Below are positions 3,728-32,000 of a stretch of DNA of 32,000 nucleotides, piece after piece (the stretch's first letter is position 1; every line of letters starts with the position of its first letter). The DNA is taken from the NCBI RefSeq assembly GCF_003945235.1, contig NZ_RSDW01000001.1, positions 2,820,001 through 2,852,000 of the forward strand. The letters are read 5' to 3'. The translations under genes and the position numbers were made by a program. Below the pieces are notes generated by a model. The model saw only the letters and a program-made list of their open reading frames with translations. It made no database searches and was not told the DNA's origin. The DNA comes from Edaphobacter aggregans (GTDB lineage: Bacteria; Acidobacteriota; Terriglobia; Terriglobales; Acidobacteriaceae).

Positions 3728-4507
3728 CTAAAGAGACCGAATAATCGAAGCCGCAATACTCTCCACCGGAACCGCCTTCTTCTGCGGAGCATCTCGCGCG
3801 GGATCATAGTACAGCAACCGCCCGCAGCTCTCGCACGTCATCATCGTCTCGTCGTTGCTCCGGTCCCGCAAATCATTCCACTTCTGCGGACGCAGCATCA
3901 TCTGGCACGCCATACACTTCTGATTCAGCGCCTCGGCCACAGCCGTACCCTTGCCCTTCGAGATCCGGTCATAAACGGAGAGCGCATCCTCACCAATCTC
4001 CGGTCTAAGCGCAGCGCGCCTCTCTTCAACCCCAGCCAGCGCGACCTTATCCGCCGCAATCGTCTCAGCAGCCCGCACCCGTTCGCGCTCCAGAATCTTC
4101 TCGTCCGCAGCCACCGCCTCATCCGCCCGCGCCTTCTGAGCCTCAAGAGCCTCACTCCGCTCCATACTCTCCAACTCAGCGTCTTCCAGTCTGCTCACCT
4201 CACCTTGAGCAAACGAAATCTCATGCTCGAACGCCGTCACCTGCACCGTAGTCGTCGCTTGGTCCAACTGCTTCTTCACCTTCGCCATCTTGGCCTGATG
4301 GTCCTTGATGTCCAGCTCCTGACGGCGTCGCAACACCTCTTCCTTAGCGATCAAATCCACCACGACGGCTCGCTGCCCCTGCGTAGCCTTAAGTTTTGTC
4401 TCCAGCTCAGCAACCCTCTTCGGCAACGCAGACATCTCATCCCGCAGACGCTTCGCCTCCACATCAAGCCCCTGCAGCACAATCATCTTTTCAAGATCCG
4501 GATGCAT
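3728..4507 (-). CDS. COG1579-type zinc-ribbon / coiled-coil protein (C4 zinc ribbon domain)
   Basis: Long heptad-rich coiled coil followed by 'CMACQMML...CESCGRLLYY' (two CxxC pairs). I use ATG 4507 (MHPDLEKM), which has GAGGTG 8 nt upstream. The track starts at GTG 4516. Confidence 0.8.
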   Translation of the reverse strand: MHPDLEKMIVLQGLDVEAKRLRDEMSALPKRVAELETKLKATQGQRAVVVDLIAKEEVLRRRQELDIKDHQAKMAKVKKQLDQATTTVQVTAFEHEISFAQGEVSRLEDAELESMERSEALEAQKARADEAVAADEKILERERVRAAETIAADKVALAGVEERRAALRPEIGEDALSVYDRISKGKGTAVAEALNQKCMACQMMLRPQKWNDLRDRSNDETMMTCESCGRLLYYDPARDAPQKKAVPVESIAASIIRSL

Positions 4508-4763
4508 CCAAAACACCTCACTTCACTACCGTCAGCGTAAAACATTCAGACATCCACCGGAAAACTCGAAGTCTACCACTCTAGCCGCTCCCTCCGAAGC
4601 CAGCATCTCCTCTGCCATTGAGAACACAACCACATTGGAGCATAATGGGAACCATTACGACGCTAGCCCGTGCACGTCTCCGGGCAGTCCGCAGCGTCCT
4701 TGTTTCCCTCGCCTCCCGGGCCATATCTTCCTTGAAAAAATTCTTCCCAGGATCGGAATTGAT

Positions 4764-6155
4764 ATGCAACTTTGGACAGACTACGAAGGAAGAACCATCG
4801 CTGAAAACTATCCCCTCGACAAGCTCCTCCGCCCCGAGGGCCGCAGCGCTTTCTTCTCCACCTCTAACGGCACCGGCACACCCGCCGTCATCCGCCTGAT
4901 CGAAGCCCACTTCGACGAATCCGAGATCCTCAACCGCTGGCGCGTCGTCGCCGAAATCAACCAGATCAACCTCGTCAATCTCAAAAAATACGGCCAGACC
5001 ACACTCGACGAGACCCCCCTCGTCTACGCCGTCATGGAGACCACCGAGGCCGATCTCGCCGAAGTCCTCGCCGACCGCGCCCTCACGCCTGAAGAGACCC
5101 GCCAGGTCGCCACCAGCCTCGTCGCCGCGCTCGAAGCCCTCCACTCCCGCAACCTCGTCCACGAGCACGTCGAACCCGCCAACGTCCTCGCCGCGGGCGA
5201 AGTCGTCAAGCTCCGCAGCGACTGCATCCGCGAGGTGCCCGACTCATCCGACGACCCCCAGCAGGACGGAAAAGTCCTCAAGGCCCGCGACGTCCACGAC
5301 CTCGCCCTCGTCCTACTCCAGTCCCTCACCCAGCAGCGCACCCTGCCCAGCGGTTCGTCTCTACCCGCCCCCTTCGACAACATCGTCCGCAACGGCATCA
5401 GCGGAGTCTGGGGCCTTCCGCAGATCGCCGCAGCCCTCAACCCAACATCCACACGTCCCCCCGCACCAACGCGCCAACAACTCACCGCCGAACCAGCCAC
5501 AGCACCGACCATTCCACCTTCCCGACCAACCTTGGACACGAAGGCGAGTCCGCAGAACGCGTCACCATCCAAAGCAATCGCCGAACCCATCGCCCCAACA
5601 CCACCGAAGCCTCCCCAGAGACCCACCCCCATCACCATCCCAACAGAGGCAAGAGACGTCAGGCACCGCATCGTCAGACCAGTCGAGTTAGCCCCACAGC
5701 AACGCAAGAGCCTATGGATCGCCGCCGCCATCGGAGCTCTATTCTTAGCCTTCCTCCTATGGCACTTCTTGAGCCCGAGCGCCACAACGCAATCCGCCGT
5801 CGCGACCCAACCCATCACCACGCTTGCAGCCACCCAGCCAGACAACTCCGCACCCGCAGCCGAAACCCCCGCGCCGCCGCCTACTCCGGCAGCATCCTCC
5901 ACCGGCATGCGCGACCAATGGAGAGTCGTAGCCTACACCTACAACCACCAGGACCAGGCCCAGAAGAAGGCTGCAACCATAGCCAAACGCCATCCTTCTC
6001 TCAACCCTGAGGTCTTCACCCCTAACGGCCACGCTCCCTACCTCGTTACCGTAGGAGGCCCCATGACCCGCGACGAAGCCAACGCCTTCAAGCAAAAGGC
6101 CCGAGCCGACGGCCTACCCCGCGACATTTACACCCAGAACTACACCACCCGCTAA
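4764..6155 (+). CDS. Membrane-anchored protein: degenerate protein-kinase-like domain + Pro-rich linker + one TM + C-terminal SPOR domain
   Basis: Kinase-like order of motifs, all degenerate: 'AVIRL' for VAIK, 'HEHVEPAN' for HRDLKPxN, 'LRSDC' for DFG. TM segment 'LWIAAAIGALFLAFLLW'. C-terminus 'WRVVAYTYNHQDQAQKKAATIAKRHPSL...YLVTVGGPMTRDEANAFKQKARADGLPRDIY' is SPOR-like. Start set to ATG 4764 (MQLWTDYEG); the track starts at TTG 4635. Confidence 0.75.
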   Translation: MQLWTDYEGRTIAENYPLDKLLRPEGRSAFFSTSNGTGTPAVIRLIEAHFDESEILNRWRVVAEINQINLVNLKKYGQTTLDETPLVYAVMETTEADLAEVLADRALTPEETRQVATSLVAALEALHSRNLVHEHVEPANVLAAGEVVKLRSDCIREVPDSSDDPQQDGKVLKARDVHDLALVLLQSLTQQRTLPSGSSLPAPFDNIVRNGISGVWGLPQIAAALNPTSTRPPAPTRQQLTAEPATAPTIPPSRPTLDTKASPQNASPSKAIAEPIAPTPPKPPQRPTPITIPTEARDVRHRIVRPVELAPQQRKSLWIAAAIGALFLAFLLWHFLSPSATTQSAVATQPITTLAATQPDNSAPAAETPAPPPTPAASSTGMRDQWRVVAYTYNHQDQAQKKAATIAKRHPSLNPEVFTPNGHAPYLVTVGGPMTRDEANAFKQKARADGLPRDIYTQNYTTR

Positions 6156-25717: not shown

Positions 25718-26032
25718 CTAAGCCGCTTCGTCGGTGGTCACAGCGGCAATCGAACTCTTCACAAACTCAAGCTTCACCCCGTCGGGCTGGACGCGCAGCA
25801 CAACAGTATCGTCCTTGACCGTCAGAATCGTCCCCTTGATCCCGCCATTTGTTGTCACGCGGTCTCCGGACTTCAATTGTGACAGCATCTCCTGCCACTT
25901 TTTCTGCTTCTTCTGGTTAGGAGCGATCATCAAAAAGTACAGCACCGCGAAGAACAGCAGCGGGAGCGCAAGTCCGCCCAAATTACCAAGGGCGAATCCC
26001 CCGGCAGTACTTTGCAACCACATTGCCAACAT
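25718..26032 (-). CDS. yajC: Preprotein translocase subunit YajC
   Basis: 'LPLLFFAVLYFLMIAPNQKKQKKWQEMLSQLKSGDRVTTNGGIKGTI' is the YajC signature. ATG 26032 with GGAG 7 nt upstream; the track starts at TTG 26062. Confidence 0.9.
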   Translation of the reverse strand: MLAMWLQSTAGGFALGNLGGLALPLLFFAVLYFLMIAPNQKKQKKWQEMLSQLKSGDRVTTNGGIKGTILTVKDDTVVLRVQPDGVKLEFVKSSIAAVTTDEAA

Positions 26033-26167: not shown

Positions 26168-26917
26168 CTACCAATCGTCCGTCTCCGTCATACCCATCAC
26201 ATTCGGGTTTTTGCCGCATTGACCGCTCTTGCAGAACGCCTCCGCAGCCGCAATATATTGCGTCCAGTCCTTGGCGATCCCCACTTGCGCCTTCTTCAGG
26301 GACATCGTTCCGTTCCTCACCTGCTCCCCCAGGTACAGCTCTACTTTGTCTTTCTCCTTGAAATACCGTGCGTTTAGAGCCGCCCCATCCGGTCCGCACT
26401 GCGGCCAGATATTGTCCAGCGTATCCGCGCCTCCCAGGTACAGCGGCACCAGATGGTCCAGTTCGCAGGTCTGATTCTGCCCTTGATTGTCCTGGGGTTT
26501 GGATTGCGAATACCACCCATACGTCTTCGCCTTCTCATCAGCTGAAGTCGCCTTATTCCGCACGCAATCCGTCCGAAAATCAGGATCCTTCAATACCGTG
26601 ACCGTAAGCGTCGAATTGACTGCGCCAGGCGTGCACTTCGGATCAGGCAGGAGATGCCCCTTCTTTTGGTGCGGCTTGCATGAACCATCGTTCGGCACAT
26701 TGAATACCGCTAAGGCCTGGTCATCCTTTATCTTGATCTCGACTGGACAGGCCGGCTGAGCCAACGGAACACTCTGCGCCTGTATCTGCAAAGGCAAGCT
26801 TGCCGTCAGTGGTGGCGCGACTGGTGGCTGCTTGTGAGCGCATCCGGACAACCCAAAGCTCCAAAGACAGAAAAAGCAGCCAAAGAAACCGGAATCGATC
26901 CCTTTACCATCGCGCAC
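26168..26917 (-). CDS. Lipoprotein with C-terminal HNH-type nuclease domain
   Basis: Canonical lipobox 'FGLSGC'. Cys-rich middle region. HNH core 'CELDHLVPLYLGGADTLDNIWPQ' followed by 'KEKDKVELYLGEQVRNGTMSLKKAQVGIAKDW'. Many T/A/G-ending codons compared with neighbours. Confidence 0.72.
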   Translation of the reverse strand: MRDGKGIDSGFFGCFFCLWSFGLSGCAHKQPPVAPPLTASLPLQIQAQSVPLAQPACPVEIKIKDDQALAVFNVPNDGSCKPHQKKGHLLPDPKCTPGAVNSTLTVTVLKDPDFRTDCVRNKATSADEKAKTYGWYSQSKPQDNQGQNQTCELDHLVPLYLGGADTLDNIWPQCGPDGAALNARYFKEKDKVELYLGEQVRNGTMSLKKAQVGIAKDWTQYIAAAEAFCKSGQCGKNPNVMGMTETDDW

Positions 26918-27992: not shown

Positions 27993-29468
27993 GTGAAGCG
28001 AGAAGCCGCCAAAGAGGAAGCCGCCGAACTGCTCACCATCGACGGCCACGAAGTCCGCGTCACGCACCCCGACAAGCTCTACTTCTCCAAACAAGTCCAG
28101 CTTACAAAGCTCGATCTCGTCCGCTACTACCTCTCCATCGCCCCCGGAGCTCTCAACGGCATCCGCGACCGCCCCATCGTCCTCAAACGCTTCGTCAACG
28201 GAGCCGAAGCCGAGGCCTTCTACCAAAAGCGCGCCCCCTCCGACCGCCCCTCCTTCCTCCGCACCGTCACCCTCTCCTTCCCCTCAGGCCGCACCGCCGA
28301 AGAGCTAGTCGTCGACAACCCCGCCGGCCTGGCGTGGATCGTCAACCTGGGCTGCATCGAGCTCCACCCCCACCCCGTCCGCTCCGACGACCTCGACCAC
28401 CCCGACGAGCTCCGCGTCGACCTCGACCCCATCCCCGGCGTCCCCTGGTCCGACGTCCGCCTAGTCGCCTTCGAAGTCCAATCCCTCCTCACCGACCTCG
28501 GTCTCCGCGGCTGGCCCAAGACCAGCGGCTCCCGCGGCATGCACATCAACATCCGTATCCATCCCCGCTGGACCTTCACCGAAGTTCGTCGCGCCGCGCT
28601 TGCCCTCTCCCGAGCCGTCGAACGCCGCGTCCCCACCCTCGCCAGCTCCAAGTGGTGGAAAGAGGAGCGCCACGGCGTCTTCCTCGACTACAACCAGAAC
28701 GCCAAAGATCGCACCACCGCCTCCGCCTACTCCGTCCGCCCGCTCCCCGACGCGCGCGTCTCTACGCCTCTCCACTGGCACGAGGTCGCCGACTGCGATC
28801 CCGCCGCCTTCACCGTCCTCACCGTCCCCGTCCGGTTCTCCCAGATCGGAGACCCCCACGTCGACATGGACGCACACCCCGGCACCCTCGAACCTCTCCT
28901 CGAAATAGCCGCCCAAGACGAATCCACCGGCCTCGGCGACGCTCCCTGGCCCCCACACTTTCGCAAGATGGAAGGCGAAGCTCCCCGCGTAGCACCCTCC
29001 CGAGCCAAAAAATCCACCACAGAAAAATCCTTCTCCCATCAACTAGACGAAGGATTCGGCGCCCAACGCTTCCGCAAGCGCTCCAAAACCATAGAAGAGG
29101 GCGACGCTACTATTTCAGAGCCGCCTCAAGCAGATTCAGCCCCGAAGCCACGCCGCACACGAGTTTCGACCCAACCACTCATCACCATCGCTAACTCCCC
29201 AGACAAACAAGCCGCCCTCGAAGGCCTCGAACGCTGGAAAACTCGCTACCCTGAAGTCGCCAATCACCTCGCTATCGACGACATCCTCATCGACTCCATG
29301 CGAGGCCGCTCCTCCACCTGGACCCGCATCCGAGTCAACCTCCGCCATATCCTCGAAGACCTCCGCCCCCCGCAAGAGACTCCCGACCCCGACGACGACC
29401 CCACCCGCGAGTGGCGCACCCTCCACGCCACAGCTAAACGCACGGCAAAAAAATCCGGCGGTTCGTGA
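27993..29468 (+). CDS. Stand-alone AEP primase-polymerase (LigD Pol-domain / Prim-PolC-like) with ~150-aa C-terminal extension
   Basis: AEP motifs: 'ELRVDLDP' (DxD), 'TSGSRGMHINI' (SGxRGxH), 'VFLDYNQN'. The Pol domain seems to end near 'WPPHFRKMEGEAPRVAPSR' (aa ~337 of 491). GTG start. Confidence 0.88.
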   Translation: MKREAAKEEAAELLTIDGHEVRVTHPDKLYFSKQVQLTKLDLVRYYLSIAPGALNGIRDRPIVLKRFVNGAEAEAFYQKRAPSDRPSFLRTVTLSFPSGRTAEELVVDNPAGLAWIVNLGCIELHPHPVRSDDLDHPDELRVDLDPIPGVPWSDVRLVAFEVQSLLTDLGLRGWPKTSGSRGMHINIRIHPRWTFTEVRRAALALSRAVERRVPTLASSKWWKEERHGVFLDYNQNAKDRTTASAYSVRPLPDARVSTPLHWHEVADCDPAAFTVLTVPVRFSQIGDPHVDMDAHPGTLEPLLEIAAQDESTGLGDAPWPPHFRKMEGEAPRVAPSRAKKSTTEKSFSHQLDEGFGAQRFRKRSKTIEEGDATISEPPQADSAPKPRRTRVSTQPLITIANSPDKQAALEGLERWKTRYPEVANHLAIDDILIDSMRGRSSTWTRIRVNLRHILEDLRPPQETPDPDDDPTREWRTLHATAKRTAKKSGGS

Positions 29469-29474
29469 GACCTC

Positions 29475-30563
29475 TCACCGCCCGCTCGCAAAGACCTCTC
29501 TCAACTCCTCAGGAGGCACCACCTCCAACTGCGCATACGTACAATCCTCCGGCCGCTTGTCCGTCCGCCATCGCCTGAAGTGAGCCATGTGCCGAAACCG
29601 CCTTCCCTGCATATGTTCATAGGCGACCTCCGCCACAAGCGCCGGCCGCAGCGGCTCCCACGACAAATCCTTCCCCTGACTCCACCGGCTTTGCCCACCC
29701 GGCATGCGCTTTCCTTCATTTTCGGTTTGAAACTCTGCCCAGCCCCGCCACGGATGTCCATCCAGCGCACCCCTGCGATAGGGCTCCAGAAAATCCACCA
29801 GCTCTCTCCGCTTCGCCTGCCTAAAGCTCGCGCACACCCCCACGTGTTGCAGCGCGCCCTCCGAATCAAACAGCCCCAGCAGCAGCGATCCAATCGCCGT
29901 TCCTTCGCCATCCTTATGCCACCGAAATCCGGCCACCAAGCAGTCGCAATCCCGCTCATGCTTCACCTTCAGCATCGTGCGTTTATTTGGTTCATAGATG
30001 CCCGTCGCAGGCTTAGCCATCACACCATCCAGCCCCGCACCCTCAAACCGCCTGAACCAATCCAACGCCACACTCGAATCTCGCGTCGCCGGCGTGATAT
30101 GAACCGGAGGCCTCGCCCCGGCAAGCAGCCTTTCCAACTCCGCACGCCGCGCCTCAAACGGCTCTCCCCGAAGATCGCGCTCCCCTACACACAGCAGATC
30201 GAAAAACACCACCGACGCTGGAATTTCTTTCGATAGCAGCTTCACTCTCGTAGCTGCGGGATGAAGCCGCAGCTGCAACGCTTCGAAGTCCAACCCGCCC
30301 GCACCTGCGATTACCACCTCGCCATCCAGCACGCATTTCCCCGGCAACTGCTCACGCAGCGTCTCCACGACTTCAGGAAAGTACCGATCCAGCGGCTTCA
30401 AATCGCGGCTTTGAATCTGCAGTTCATCACGATCCCGAAACACCAGCGCCCGAAATCCATCCCACTTCGGTTCGAAGATCCACGCACCTTCCGTCGGGAT
30501 CTCATCCACTCGCTTGGCGAGCATCGGCGCAACCGGCGGATTTACGGGAAGCTGCACCGCCAC
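29475..30563 (-). CDS. ATP-dependent DNA ligase, LigC-like (adenylation + OB domains only)
   Basis: Motif I 'EPKWDGFR' (Lys33), 'VFFDLL', 'DGVMAK', 'MLKVKHERD'. N-terminus 'LPVNPPVAPMLAK' is typical of bacterial LigC / LigD ligase domains. GTG 30563 with GAGG 9 nt upstream. 362 aa with no Pol or phosphoesterase domains. Confidence 0.9.
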   Translation of the reverse strand: MAVQLPVNPPVAPMLAKRVDEIPTEGAWIFEPKWDGFRALVFRDRDELQIQSRDLKPLDRYFPEVVETLREQLPGKCVLDGEVVIAGAGGLDFEALQLRLHPAATRVKLLSKEIPASVVFFDLLCVGERDLRGEPFEARRAELERLLAGARPPVHITPATRDSSVALDWFRRFEGAGLDGVMAKPATGIYEPNKRTMLKVKHERDCDCLVAGFRWHKDGEGTAIGSLLLGLFDSEGALQHVGVCASFRQAKRRELVDFLEPYRRGALDGHPWRGWAEFQTENEGKRMPGGQSRWSQGKDLSWEPLRPALVAEVAYEHMQGRRFRHMAHFRRWRTDKRPEDCTYAQLEVVPPEELREVFASGR

Positions 30564-30598
30564 ATGGTATACCTCGCACCCATGGCGTCACGACGGCC

Positions 30599-30988
30599 TT
30601 AGCCAACATCCAGAAATCGCCGAGACAATTCCTCCAGCGTCGCCCCCGGCTCCCCACACAACCCACTATGCGCCGGCGACACCTGAATCATCGTGCTCCG
30701 CGGCGAGACCAGCCAGTGAAAGCGCTCCCGCTGTGTCAGCCGCGCAATCGGTCCCGCCGAAGCATCTCCCGCTGCAATCTTCGGAATCGCCTCCAGATGT
30801 TTTCGCACCAACTCCACGTCTAACTCAGGCCACAGAGCCTTCAGCCGCGCCTCATTCACCTGCACACGCGCCGCCAGAAACCGCTGCTCCAGGCAGAAGA
30901 CGATTACGCCCGCATTGATGAATTCCCCTCGCTCGACACGCGGAACGACGCGGACGACGGCGTAATCAAACGAGCTCGGCACGAGCAC
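30599..30988 (-). CDS. DUF3037 domain protein
   Basis: 'FDYAVVRVVPRVERGEFINAGVIVFC...AGPIARLTQRERFHWLVSPRSTMIQVSPAHSG' matches my recollection of DUF3037. Start set to GTG 30988 with GAGGAGG exactly 6 nt upstream. It overlaps the last 23 nt of the upstream kinase gene. The track ORF (to 31105) is over-extended. Confidence 0.8.
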   Translation of the reverse strand: MLVPSSFDYAVVRVVPRVERGEFINAGVIVFCLEQRFLAARVQVNEARLKALWPELDVELVRKHLEAIPKIAAGDASAGPIARLTQRERFHWLVSPRSTMIQVSPAHSGLCGEPGATLEELSRRFLDVG

Positions 30989-31793
30989 GGATGGCCTCCT
31001 CGACAAAATTTCTTGAAGCCTGCAACCGCCTGACGAAGAACTCCACGTACGCGGCCCGCCGGGCAGCCACAGCTGCCACACTGCCATCAGTCCCGAGCCA
31101 CGCATCCGGCGCCTCCGCCAGAATCTCTTGAAACACCACCGGATTCAAGCGCGACCTCGCCGCCAAATCCGCCTCCTCCATGCCGGTTGCCCACGGCAGC
31201 AAAATATGGTGCCGCACATCCGCAAATGCGCCAGGGGCCTTCTGCTCTGCCGTCTGCCAATTGTGGTGAAAGAACAGCGCTGCTCCGTGGTCGATGAAGT
31301 AAAGCTTTCGGTGCCAGCAGAGCAGATTGGCGTTGCGCGGTGTGCGATCCACGTTCATCACAAACGCGTCGAACCACACTGCCATTGAAGCCGTTTGCGC
31401 GTCCGCTATATCGCCTGCTGCCGGGTCAAACATGGTTGATCCGGGCAGATAGTCCAGCGCCAGATTCTTTCCCGCACTTGCTTTCAGCAGGTCGCGGATC
31501 TCCTGATCGGGTTCGTTGCGTCCCAACGCAGCGTCTACCTCGGCAAAGACAAGCTCTGGAACACGCAGGCCTAGTGCTCGGCCGATCTCACCGGCTACTA
31601 GCTCTGCGACCAGGGCCAGGGGGCCTTGTCCGGCTCCGCGGAACTTGAGTACGTACATTCCGAGATCGTCCGCTGTCACGATTGCGGGCAGGGAACCGCC
31701 TTCCCTGAGGGCTGTGACGTACTGGGTTGCTCGAACCGTGCGGATCATTCCTTTGAGTGTAGCGGCACCAAAATGTGACATTTTTTTTGACAT
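30966..31793 (-). CDS. HipA-family (HipA_C-like) protein kinase, short form
   Basis: 'REGGSLPAIVTADDLGMYVLKFRGAGQGPLALVAELVAGEIGRALGLRVPE', catalytic-loop-like 'NVDRTPRNANLL', and 'YFIDHGAA'. Start uncertain: ATG 31793, or ATG 31748 (MIRTVRATQYV), which I recall as the usual family N-terminus. Confidence 0.8.
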   Translation of the reverse strand: MSKKMSHFGAATLKGMIRTVRATQYVTALREGGSLPAIVTADDLGMYVLKFRGAGQGPLALVAELVAGEIGRALGLRVPELVFAEVDAALGRNEPDQEIRDLLKASAGKNLALDYLPGSTMFDPAAGDIADAQTASMAVWFDAFVMNVDRTPRNANLLCWHRKLYFIDHGAALFFHHNWQTAEQKAPGAFADVRHHILLPWATGMEEADLAARSRLNPVVFQEILAEAPDAWLGTDGSVAAVAARRAAYVEFFVRRLQASRNFVEEAIRARAELV

Positions 31794-31846
31794 GGTTTTT
31801 GGTGTGGTTTTTTGCGAAAAATGGGCGTAGTTTGTGGTTTTTGGTG
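31793..31846. repeat. Direct repeats TGGTTTTTGGTG (x2, 42 bp apart) plus a third TGGTTTTT copy
   Basis: Exact 12-mers at 31793-31804 and 31835-31846, with a shorter copy at 31805-31812. They sit in a ~110-nt stretch that is G/T-rich on plus (C/A-rich, G-poor on the kinase-coding strand), directly upstream of the kinase ORF. Confidence 0.7.
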
Positions 31847-32000
31847 GTTACTAAGCGGTAAAAAGTGTGGCTAGGATGGTTAGCGGACGGCTTGTTTTTT
31901 GGTTCCCCTCCGACTCTGTAGGTCCAAAATCCACGGCTTTGGTCCCTGCGATTGAGAGAAGGATAGGTCTAACCTTATCTCCTTCTATTCTCGTATTTTG

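Follow-up and report, generated by a model that had tools for sequence, protein, structure and literature searches.

An overlapping HipA_2-family kinase and DUF3037 gene pair in Edaphobacter aggregans, very probably neighboured by a LigC-type DNA ligase only incidentally

The window analysed here is a stretch of 32,000 nt from Edaphobacter aggregans (assembly GCF_003945235.1, contig NZ_RSDW01000001.1, positions 2,820,001-2,852,000). It contains three closely packed open reading frames (ORFs) on the minus strand, which encode a HipA_2-family protein kinase-like protein, a protein of the DUF3037 family and a stand-alone DNA ligase of the LigC type, and which converge with a fourth ORF on the plus strand. 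On balance, we favour the view that the genes for the kinase and DUF3037 make up a module of their own, coupled in translation and belonging to a short-partner branch of a toxin/antidote family, and that the ligase lies next to them incidentally. The parts of this view are not equally secure: we are highly confident that the pair is an autonomous unit with an incidental ligase neighbour, whereas the idea that it would work as toxin and antidote is drawn by analogy with related systems and is an even call. The original prediction for this locus had correctly described three near-contiguous genes on one strand and had assigned them to families that were borne out by Pfam and NCBIfam matches, but it had gone on to propose that the kinase and its partner are functionally wired to the ligase and to a neighbouring primase-polymerase (Prim-Pol), a linkage that all 80 of the diverse loci examined lacked and that only 2 of 126 assessable loci showed.

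The kinase gene, the DUF3037 gene and their overlap

The kinase ORF, as an open frame at 30966-31793 on the minus strand, matched the Pfam family HipA_2 (PF20613) over profile positions 8-230 of 240 (E=4e-18; 66 bits against a cut-off of 27). As this score is far below that of a prophage-type member of the family (261 bits), the window kinase is best placed in a divergent HipA_2 subgroup. The motifs FRGAGQG, NVDRTPRNANLL and FIDHG, which had been noted originally, were confirmed, the two Asp residues lying 19 positions apart. In the numbering of the 260-residue protein that is used here (start at ATG 31748), K35, G38, A39, G40, Q41, G42, E49, D134, R135, N139, N141, D153, H154 and G155 were invariant in 25 cross-phylum kinases and in 45 database kinases, and a weak alignment with casein kinase put the catalytic residues on the HRD and DFG positions. 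The invariance of the catalytic residues supports the earlier suggestion that the kinase looks catalytically competent.

The start originally assigned to the kinase, ATG 31793, is probably not the right one. The frame is open up to this codon, but the additional 15 codons were not conserved. ATG 31748 is the most likely start, giving a protein of 260 amino acids (30966-31748, minus strand), because its homologues are mostly 258-261 amino acids long, because nucleotide conservation among relatives starts only about 20 nt upstream of this ATG, and because a 98%-identical contig carries a 1-nt indel within the extension (31749-31793). The sole conserved block upstream of the gene among Edaphobacter-like loci was a motif, GCCGCTACACT (31756-31766, minus strand), that ends 7 nt before ATG 31748 and whose core, or a close variant of it, was kept in 7 of 8 aligned sequences. 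With TACACT as the -10 box, this motif may give a short-leader or leaderless kinase transcript; a scan with the sigma-70 consensus detected no promoter. Further upstream (31794-31900, minus strand) the sequence is rich in A and repeats AAAAACCAC-like words, a stretch that the window has in common only with a contig of the same species (L088).

An AlphaFold 2 model of the kinase (predicted local distance difference test score, pLDDT, 89.9) showed a protein-kinase-like fold, whose nearest solved structures were Helicobacter pylori CtkA (3akk; Foldseek E=1.5e-5, TMq 0.58), PI4KIIα, Fam20 and VPS34. CtkA, a secreted effector, is likewise a HipA-like Ser/Thr kinase, but it is only 11-12% identical to the window kinase and, to our knowledge, has no DUF3037 partner. 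HipA was absent from the top 50 Foldseek matches of the model, and neither phmmer nor a profile of 45 kinase sequences matched any HipA or HipT chain among the sequences of the Protein Data Bank (PDB). Since solved HipA and HipT were thus found neither by sequence nor among the top folds, 'HipA-like', as applied to the window kinase, is the name of a Pfam family and not a statement of close relationship. Public records give several members of the kinase family (P0147, P0195 and P0403) the name 'aminotransferase class I and II', apparently a misannotation that has been propagated.

The second gene lies in an ORF at 30599-31105 (minus strand) that matched Pfam DUF3037 (PF11236) over nearly the whole profile (positions 1-117 of 118; E=2e-44; 151 bits against 22.6). 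The profile starts at residue 48 of the ORF, which fits a start at GTG 30988 and a gene (30599-30988) for a short, single-domain partner of 129 amino acids. A GAGGAGG Shine-Dalgarno sequence (31001-30995, minus strand) precedes this GTG with a 6-nt spacer, and the 5' end of the gene overlaps the 3' end of the kinase gene by 23 nt (30966-30988). These features, all of which had been pointed out before, were readily confirmed in the sequence, and comparison with other loci extended them. Measured from the first conserved residue of DUF3037, the kinase stop codon kept the register of the window in 116 of 154 homologous loci, so that the overlap is far beyond what chance would give. When the near-identical loci L001, L002 and L088 were excluded, 113 same-register loci remained for counting; GTG, ATG or TTG was found at the position of the window start in 96 of them, and GGAGG or GAGGA upstream of it in 107, lying within the conserved Glu-Glu-Ala codons of the kinase as it does in the window. 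An overlap of 23 nt is also annotated in Bacteroides finegoldii and in four further loci (L083-L086). Because register, start codon and Shine-Dalgarno sequence are all conserved, translational coupling of the two genes, as originally suggested, is supported as a conserved design feature.

Several polar residues of DUF3037 were invariant or nearly so (R13, R20, E22, N25, R89, S98, Q102 and H107). Its AlphaFold 2 model (pLDDT 95.4) has a three-stranded and a two-stranded sheet with five helices; Foldseek returned no PDB match at E<=1e-3, the best template modelling (TM) score being about 0.3, and the viral predicted-structure library BFVD gave only uncharacterised phage proteins. DUF3037 is therefore predicted to be a compact, confidently folded domain without a solved structural relative.

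Distribution of the pair and its likely function

Homologous loci were collected by a genome scan seeded with a DUF3037 alignment and restricted to one genome per species (80 loci), by a metagenome scan for close relatives (80 loci at 58-98% DUF3037 identity), and by six look-ups of relatives and of yajC, which added eight loci. The loci of the genome scan span at least eight phyla and include Acidobacteriota, Myxococcota, Chloroflexota, Actinomycetota, Gamma- and Alphaproteobacteria, Bacteroidota, Nitrospirota, Clostridia and others. Every one of the 80 had, directly upstream of DUF3037 and on the same strand, a kinase homologous to that of the window (43-68% identity), in agreement with the idea of a small obligate partner, and DUF3037 was directly downstream of the kinase in all four plasmid matches inspected from a kinase-seeded search. 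The pair is thus an obligate unit of fixed architecture across phyla. DUF3037 itself forms 1,784 clusters at 50% identity. Among the nearest relatives the short-partner branch seems to prevail, given that the closest cluster members are mostly about 130 amino acids long and that the window protein scores highly against the Pfam DUF3037 model, which is centred on the short-partner form.

The statement in the original prediction that DUF3037 has no assigned function has been overtaken by two reports. In the operon of Retron-Sda1, a HipA-like kinase and a DUF3037 protein constitute a stand-alone defence system in which deletion of the kinase abolished defence and deletion of DUF3037 was toxic; the same study found a strong link between DUF3037 and HipA-like genes across the DUF3037 tree (PMC12548924). 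In the DefensePredictor study, the Escherichia coli system DS-6, renamed HipAD and first found by Brenes & Laub 2025 (as cited in PMC13092281), consists of a HipA-family kinase and a protein with DUF3037 and DUF1829; a catalytic mutation in the kinase abolishes defence, and AlphaFold 3 predicts a complex of the A and B proteins (PMC13092281).

Both window proteins matched the models of one candidate system in PADLOC (PDC-M66A, E=2e-20; PDC-M66B, E=7e-12). The window locus resembles PDC-M66 and DS-6 in having two genes on one strand, a HipA_2-type kinase with its catalytic residues kept and an overlapping DUF3037 gene behind it. It differs in the partner, which in PDC-M66B and DS-6B is about 280 amino acids long, with an extra C-terminal domain (DUF1829, predicted to contact DNA), and in its setting, the window branch being chromosomal, syntenic and slowly evolving where the PDC-M66/DS-6 type is prophage-borne. 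An unannotated example of the long type was found in Klebsiella phage Kp4864-1 (OK490416.1, 1642-4035), beside a gene for a CI/LexA-like repressor: a 250-residue kinase (HipA_2, 261 bits) and a 280-residue DUF3037 protein whose match to PDC-M66B spans the model (positions 6-271), encoded with a 19-nt overlap. This is a probable HipAD-type defence module and served as the long-type comparator for the identities given below. The window locus shares the same two families with Retron-Sda1, in which, however, the C-terminal part of DUF3037 resembles retron type III DNA-binding proteins and the module stands beside the retron reverse transcriptase and non-coding RNA and a helix-turn-helix gene, none of which occurs at the window locus.

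The window pair is probably transcribed from just upstream of ATG 31748. If it works as its long-type relatives do, ribosomes ending the kinase would reinitiate at the strong internal Shine-Dalgarno sequence, so that DUF3037 would be made in at least stoichiometric amounts. DUF3037 would bind the kinase and keep it inactive until a trigger, such as phage infection or stress, freed it; the freed kinase would then phosphorylate an essential cellular target and arrest growth.

A number of observations weigh against a toxin/antidote role. It is extrapolated from distant relatives, the experimental precedents all coming from the long type. The window proteins were only 28% (kinase) and 20% (DUF3037) identical to those of Kp4864-1, and the window DUF3037 matched only the N-terminal part of the PDC-M66B model (positions 3-68 of 281), lacking the C-terminal domain of about 150 amino acids found in PDC-M66B and DS-6B. 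Because of these low identities and the missing domain, the window locus is best regarded as a distinct short-partner branch of the HipA_2/DUF3037 family, core-like in Acidobacteriaceae. Within Edaphobacter the pair is syntenic, unlike typical mobile defence or toxin-antitoxin cargo, and it evolves as slowly as yajC (identities to the window of 82-87% for DUF3037, 73-78% for the kinase and 78-88% for YajC). A kinase and its nearest relative belonged to one phylum in about 77 cases out of 100, where chance alone would give about 19. The pair was rare on plasmids (7 of 72,556 records, mostly megaplasmids) and almost absent from phages, with one weak match; on these counts an origin of the pair from mobile elements was rejected. 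Finally, few immediate neighbours matched PADLOC defence models, and those were isolated (among them one DpdF, one PsyrT and one IrrE/HTH), although the neighbour scan is not informative either way on embedding in defence islands.

Several of these observations suit a different explanation, in which the short-partner pair would serve the cell as a resident module for housekeeping or stress signalling and not as a toxin-antitoxin or phage defence system. The kinase would then phosphorylate a normal cellular target, and DUF3037 would be a regulator or substrate of the kinase or an enzyme in its own right. Beyond the slow, YajC-like evolution, the clustering of the kinases mostly within phyla and the scarcity on plasmids and phages, this explanation can call on the conservation of the chromosomal site next to yajC-secDF across Edaphobacter-like genomes, on kinases that stay 50-68% identical from phylum to phylum, some 85 columns being invariant in the 45 sequences, on neighbours that are mostly ordinary transport, metabolic and housekeeping genes, and on the (near-)invariant polar residues that DUF3037 carries in a fold without a solved relative. 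Against it stand the homology of both genes to both components of PDC-M66 and the experimentally toxic and defensive behaviour of related pairs (PMC12548924; PMC13092281). Tight coupling with a strong Shine-Dalgarno sequence for the second gene is, moreover, typical of the control of toxin/antidote stoichiometry, and some nearest kinase neighbours from different phyla share 68-74% identity, which suggests horizontal transfer. Outside the genus, the context of the pair varies completely, as expected of an autonomous module: when all ORFs within ±7 kb were clustered, no family of neighbours recurred beyond 10 of the 80 loci, and the 88 genes that flank the pair directly in 44 long loci matched 99 Pfam families, each with three members at most. 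We therefore hold the housekeeping explanation to be a serious rival, though the less likely one. Slightly less probable again is its extended form, in which the short-partner pair would be a signalling module of ancient origin, passed on mostly by vertical descent; DUF3037 would regulate a conserved Ser/Thr kinase by binding a ligand or by catalysis, and the prophage HipAD systems would be a weaponised offshoot.

The ligase and the interval between DUF3037 and yajC

The ligase ORF (29475-30563, minus strand; 362 amino acids) matched NCBIfam NF006078/PRK08224, the equivalog of stand-alone LigC-type ligases, over positions 2-347 of 350 (505 bits against a cut-off of 296), and Pfam found in it only DNA_ligase_A_M and DNA_ligase_A_C, with no polymerase or phosphoesterase domains. 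DUF3037 ends with its stop at 30599 and the ligase begins at GTG 30563, leaving a spacer of 35 nt (30564-30598, minus strand). No terminator-like site was found in this spacer and its fold is not unusually stable (z=+0.4). The earlier description of the junction was therefore right about the short spacer without a strong hairpin or terminator, and wrong in one detail, as the GAGG upstream of the ligase lies 8 nt, not 9 nt, from the GTG. Given such a gap, the pair may be co-transcribed with the ligase in this strain, which is a point against a purely incidental adjacency.

The proposal that kinase, DUF3037 and LigC ligase, together with Prim-Pol, are one system, acting either through phospho-control of gap and end repair or as a defence module that recruits the ligase, draws on this same-strand junction and on the occurrence of the same arrangement in three contigs of the same species (L001, L002 and L088). 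The original prediction had itself counted a lack of conserved linkage between pair and ligase in related genomes as a refutation, and the gene-neighbourhood census revealed no such linkage. The 80 diverse loci of the genome scan were all without a ligase or Prim-Pol gene in the 10 kb to either side of the pair. Among 126 loci with at least 1.2 kb of sequence downstream of DUF3037, a ligase lay beside the pair in only two, both at least 91% identical to the window: L083 (91%) and L088 (98%), the latter evidently from the same species. No ligase was present at the locus in relatives whose DUF3037 is 82-87% identical, including three at 87% (L089-L091).

The spacer itself also argues against a three-gene system. 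In L083 and L169, two independent close carriers of the ligase, DUF3037 and the ligase gene are parted by about 320 and 290 nt, respectively (6396-6712 in L083; 365-655 in L169). This longer spacer opens with a terminator-like GC hairpin, GGGGCUGAAGCCCC, followed by U5; a second hairpin comes next, and then a 77-nt tandem repeat rich in GCAACA and GCAAGA units. The whole looks like a small repetitive intergenic element that was deleted in the lineage of the window. Because L083 and L169 keep the spacer of about 300 nt with its terminator-like hairpin, the 35-nt gap of the window, L001, L002 and L088 is best read as a derived, short form produced by a recent deletion, which would at most create strain-specific read-through into the ligase. 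Such read-through would therefore be a strain-level accident and not the mark of a designed three-gene system, an idea that we now consider highly improbable.

The site in which the ligase is found proved to be variable. In Edaphobacter-like genomes the conserved order is TGT ... HbpS-like gene (divergent), kinase, DUF3037 and then yajC-secD-secF-...-exbBD. The pair directly abuts yajC in L085 and L086 (E. dinghuensis) and in L096, L098, L100, L101, L103-L105 and L122. A gene for phosphoenolpyruvate (PEP) mutase is all that separates DUF3037 from yajC in L084, which, like L091, has this gene but no ligase; L083 has ligase, Prim-Pol and PEP mutase genes in the interval. L169, the YajC of which is identical, has in addition an IS481-family transposase gene between those for Prim-Pol and PEP mutase (3883-4833), and its ligase is split into two ORFs, reflecting either an assembly error or a pseudogene. 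In the window, the far edge of the variable insert is marked by yajC (25718-26032, minus strand), followed by secD and secF, all three identified by Pfam. Between the PEP mutase gene and yajC lies a strain-specific ORF of 249 codons (26168-26917, minus strand) whose product has a lipoprotein-like N-terminus and a sub-threshold Pfam HNH match (E=0.013); L083 and the 98%-related L088 do not have it, and it is apparently present in L171, where a 249-residue gene lies just upstream of yajC. Since relatives variously hold PEP mutase, ligase and Prim-Pol, IS481, a strain-specific ORF or nothing there, the interval between DUF3037 and yajC is a plastic insertion site, in which the ligase and Prim-Pol genes, present or absent together in relatives, come and go as a unit. 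The LigC/Prim-Pol genes would thus be a separate repair cassette that entered the gap in a very shallow lineage, before the deletion of about 300 nt took out the terminator-like hairpin.

The Prim-Pol gene (27993-29468, plus strand) encodes a stand-alone archaeo-eukaryotic primase (AEP)-type primase-polymerase with a LigD Prim-Pol domain (PF21686, E=2e-84) and a C-terminal tail of about 200 amino acids without a Pfam match. It converges with the ligase gene, their stop codons being 6 nt apart. A GGCGG...CCGCC hairpin with U7 stands right after the ligase stop, within the 3' end of the Prim-Pol coding sequence (29430-29500 region), and was no more stable than shuffled sequence (z=-0.2). No Ku gene was seen among the annotated ORFs of the window, in a scan that covered part of the ORFs. 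A stand-alone ATP-dependent ligase of the NF006078 type next to a stand-alone LigD-type Prim-Pol recalls the mycobacterial LigC/Prim-PolC, which Plocinski et al. reportedly described in 2017 as a base-excision and gap-repair pair; the window genes differ in being convergent, and the likeness applies to this adjacent cassette and does not extend to the kinase module. Across the whole window (1-32000) the plus strand has a strong and even excess of C, with a GC skew of -0.03 to -0.38 per 1-kb window. This excess is independent of gene orientation, the plus-strand Prim-Pol and minus-strand ligase genes both lying in windows at -0.34, and looks like an unusually strong replication-strand bias.

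Comparison with HipBA and HipBST, and what the pair represents

The pair has in common with HipBA and HipBST a Ser/Thr-kinase-like toxin of the protein-kinase-like superfamily that would be checked by a small protein from the same operon. The structures of HipS and HipA are deposited in the PDB. The analogy with HipT/HipS offered in the original prediction, in its strict form a split-HipA system of the HipBST type in which DUF3037 would supply the N-terminal subdomain of HipA in trans as HipS does, can appeal to a short kinase (260 amino acids) with a small obligate partner, but is extremely improbable in view of a high-confidence DUF3037 model that finds no significant match among solved structures (TM<=0.30), of a kinase without detectable sequence relation to solved HipA or HipT and closest in fold to CtkA, of the reversed gene order, with the kinase first and the partner second, and of the lack of an adjacent HipB-like helix-turn-helix gene, the upstream gene being the divergent HbpS-like one. 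From the fold search, DUF3037 was rejected as a HipS-like or HipB-like protein.

The locus does not, then, represent a new kinase-controlled DNA-repair system; the operon-like appearance of the three genes very probably reflects a chance juxtaposition that was tightened by a recent deletion. What the census brings out is that HipA_2 and DUF3037 form an invariant unit, apparently coupled in translation, over at least eight phyla. It also points to a split within the family, between the long-partner, prophage-borne type that has been studied and a much more widespread short-partner type that is chromosomal and slowly evolving, and this short type would be a reasonable target for working out how DUF3037 controls the kinase.

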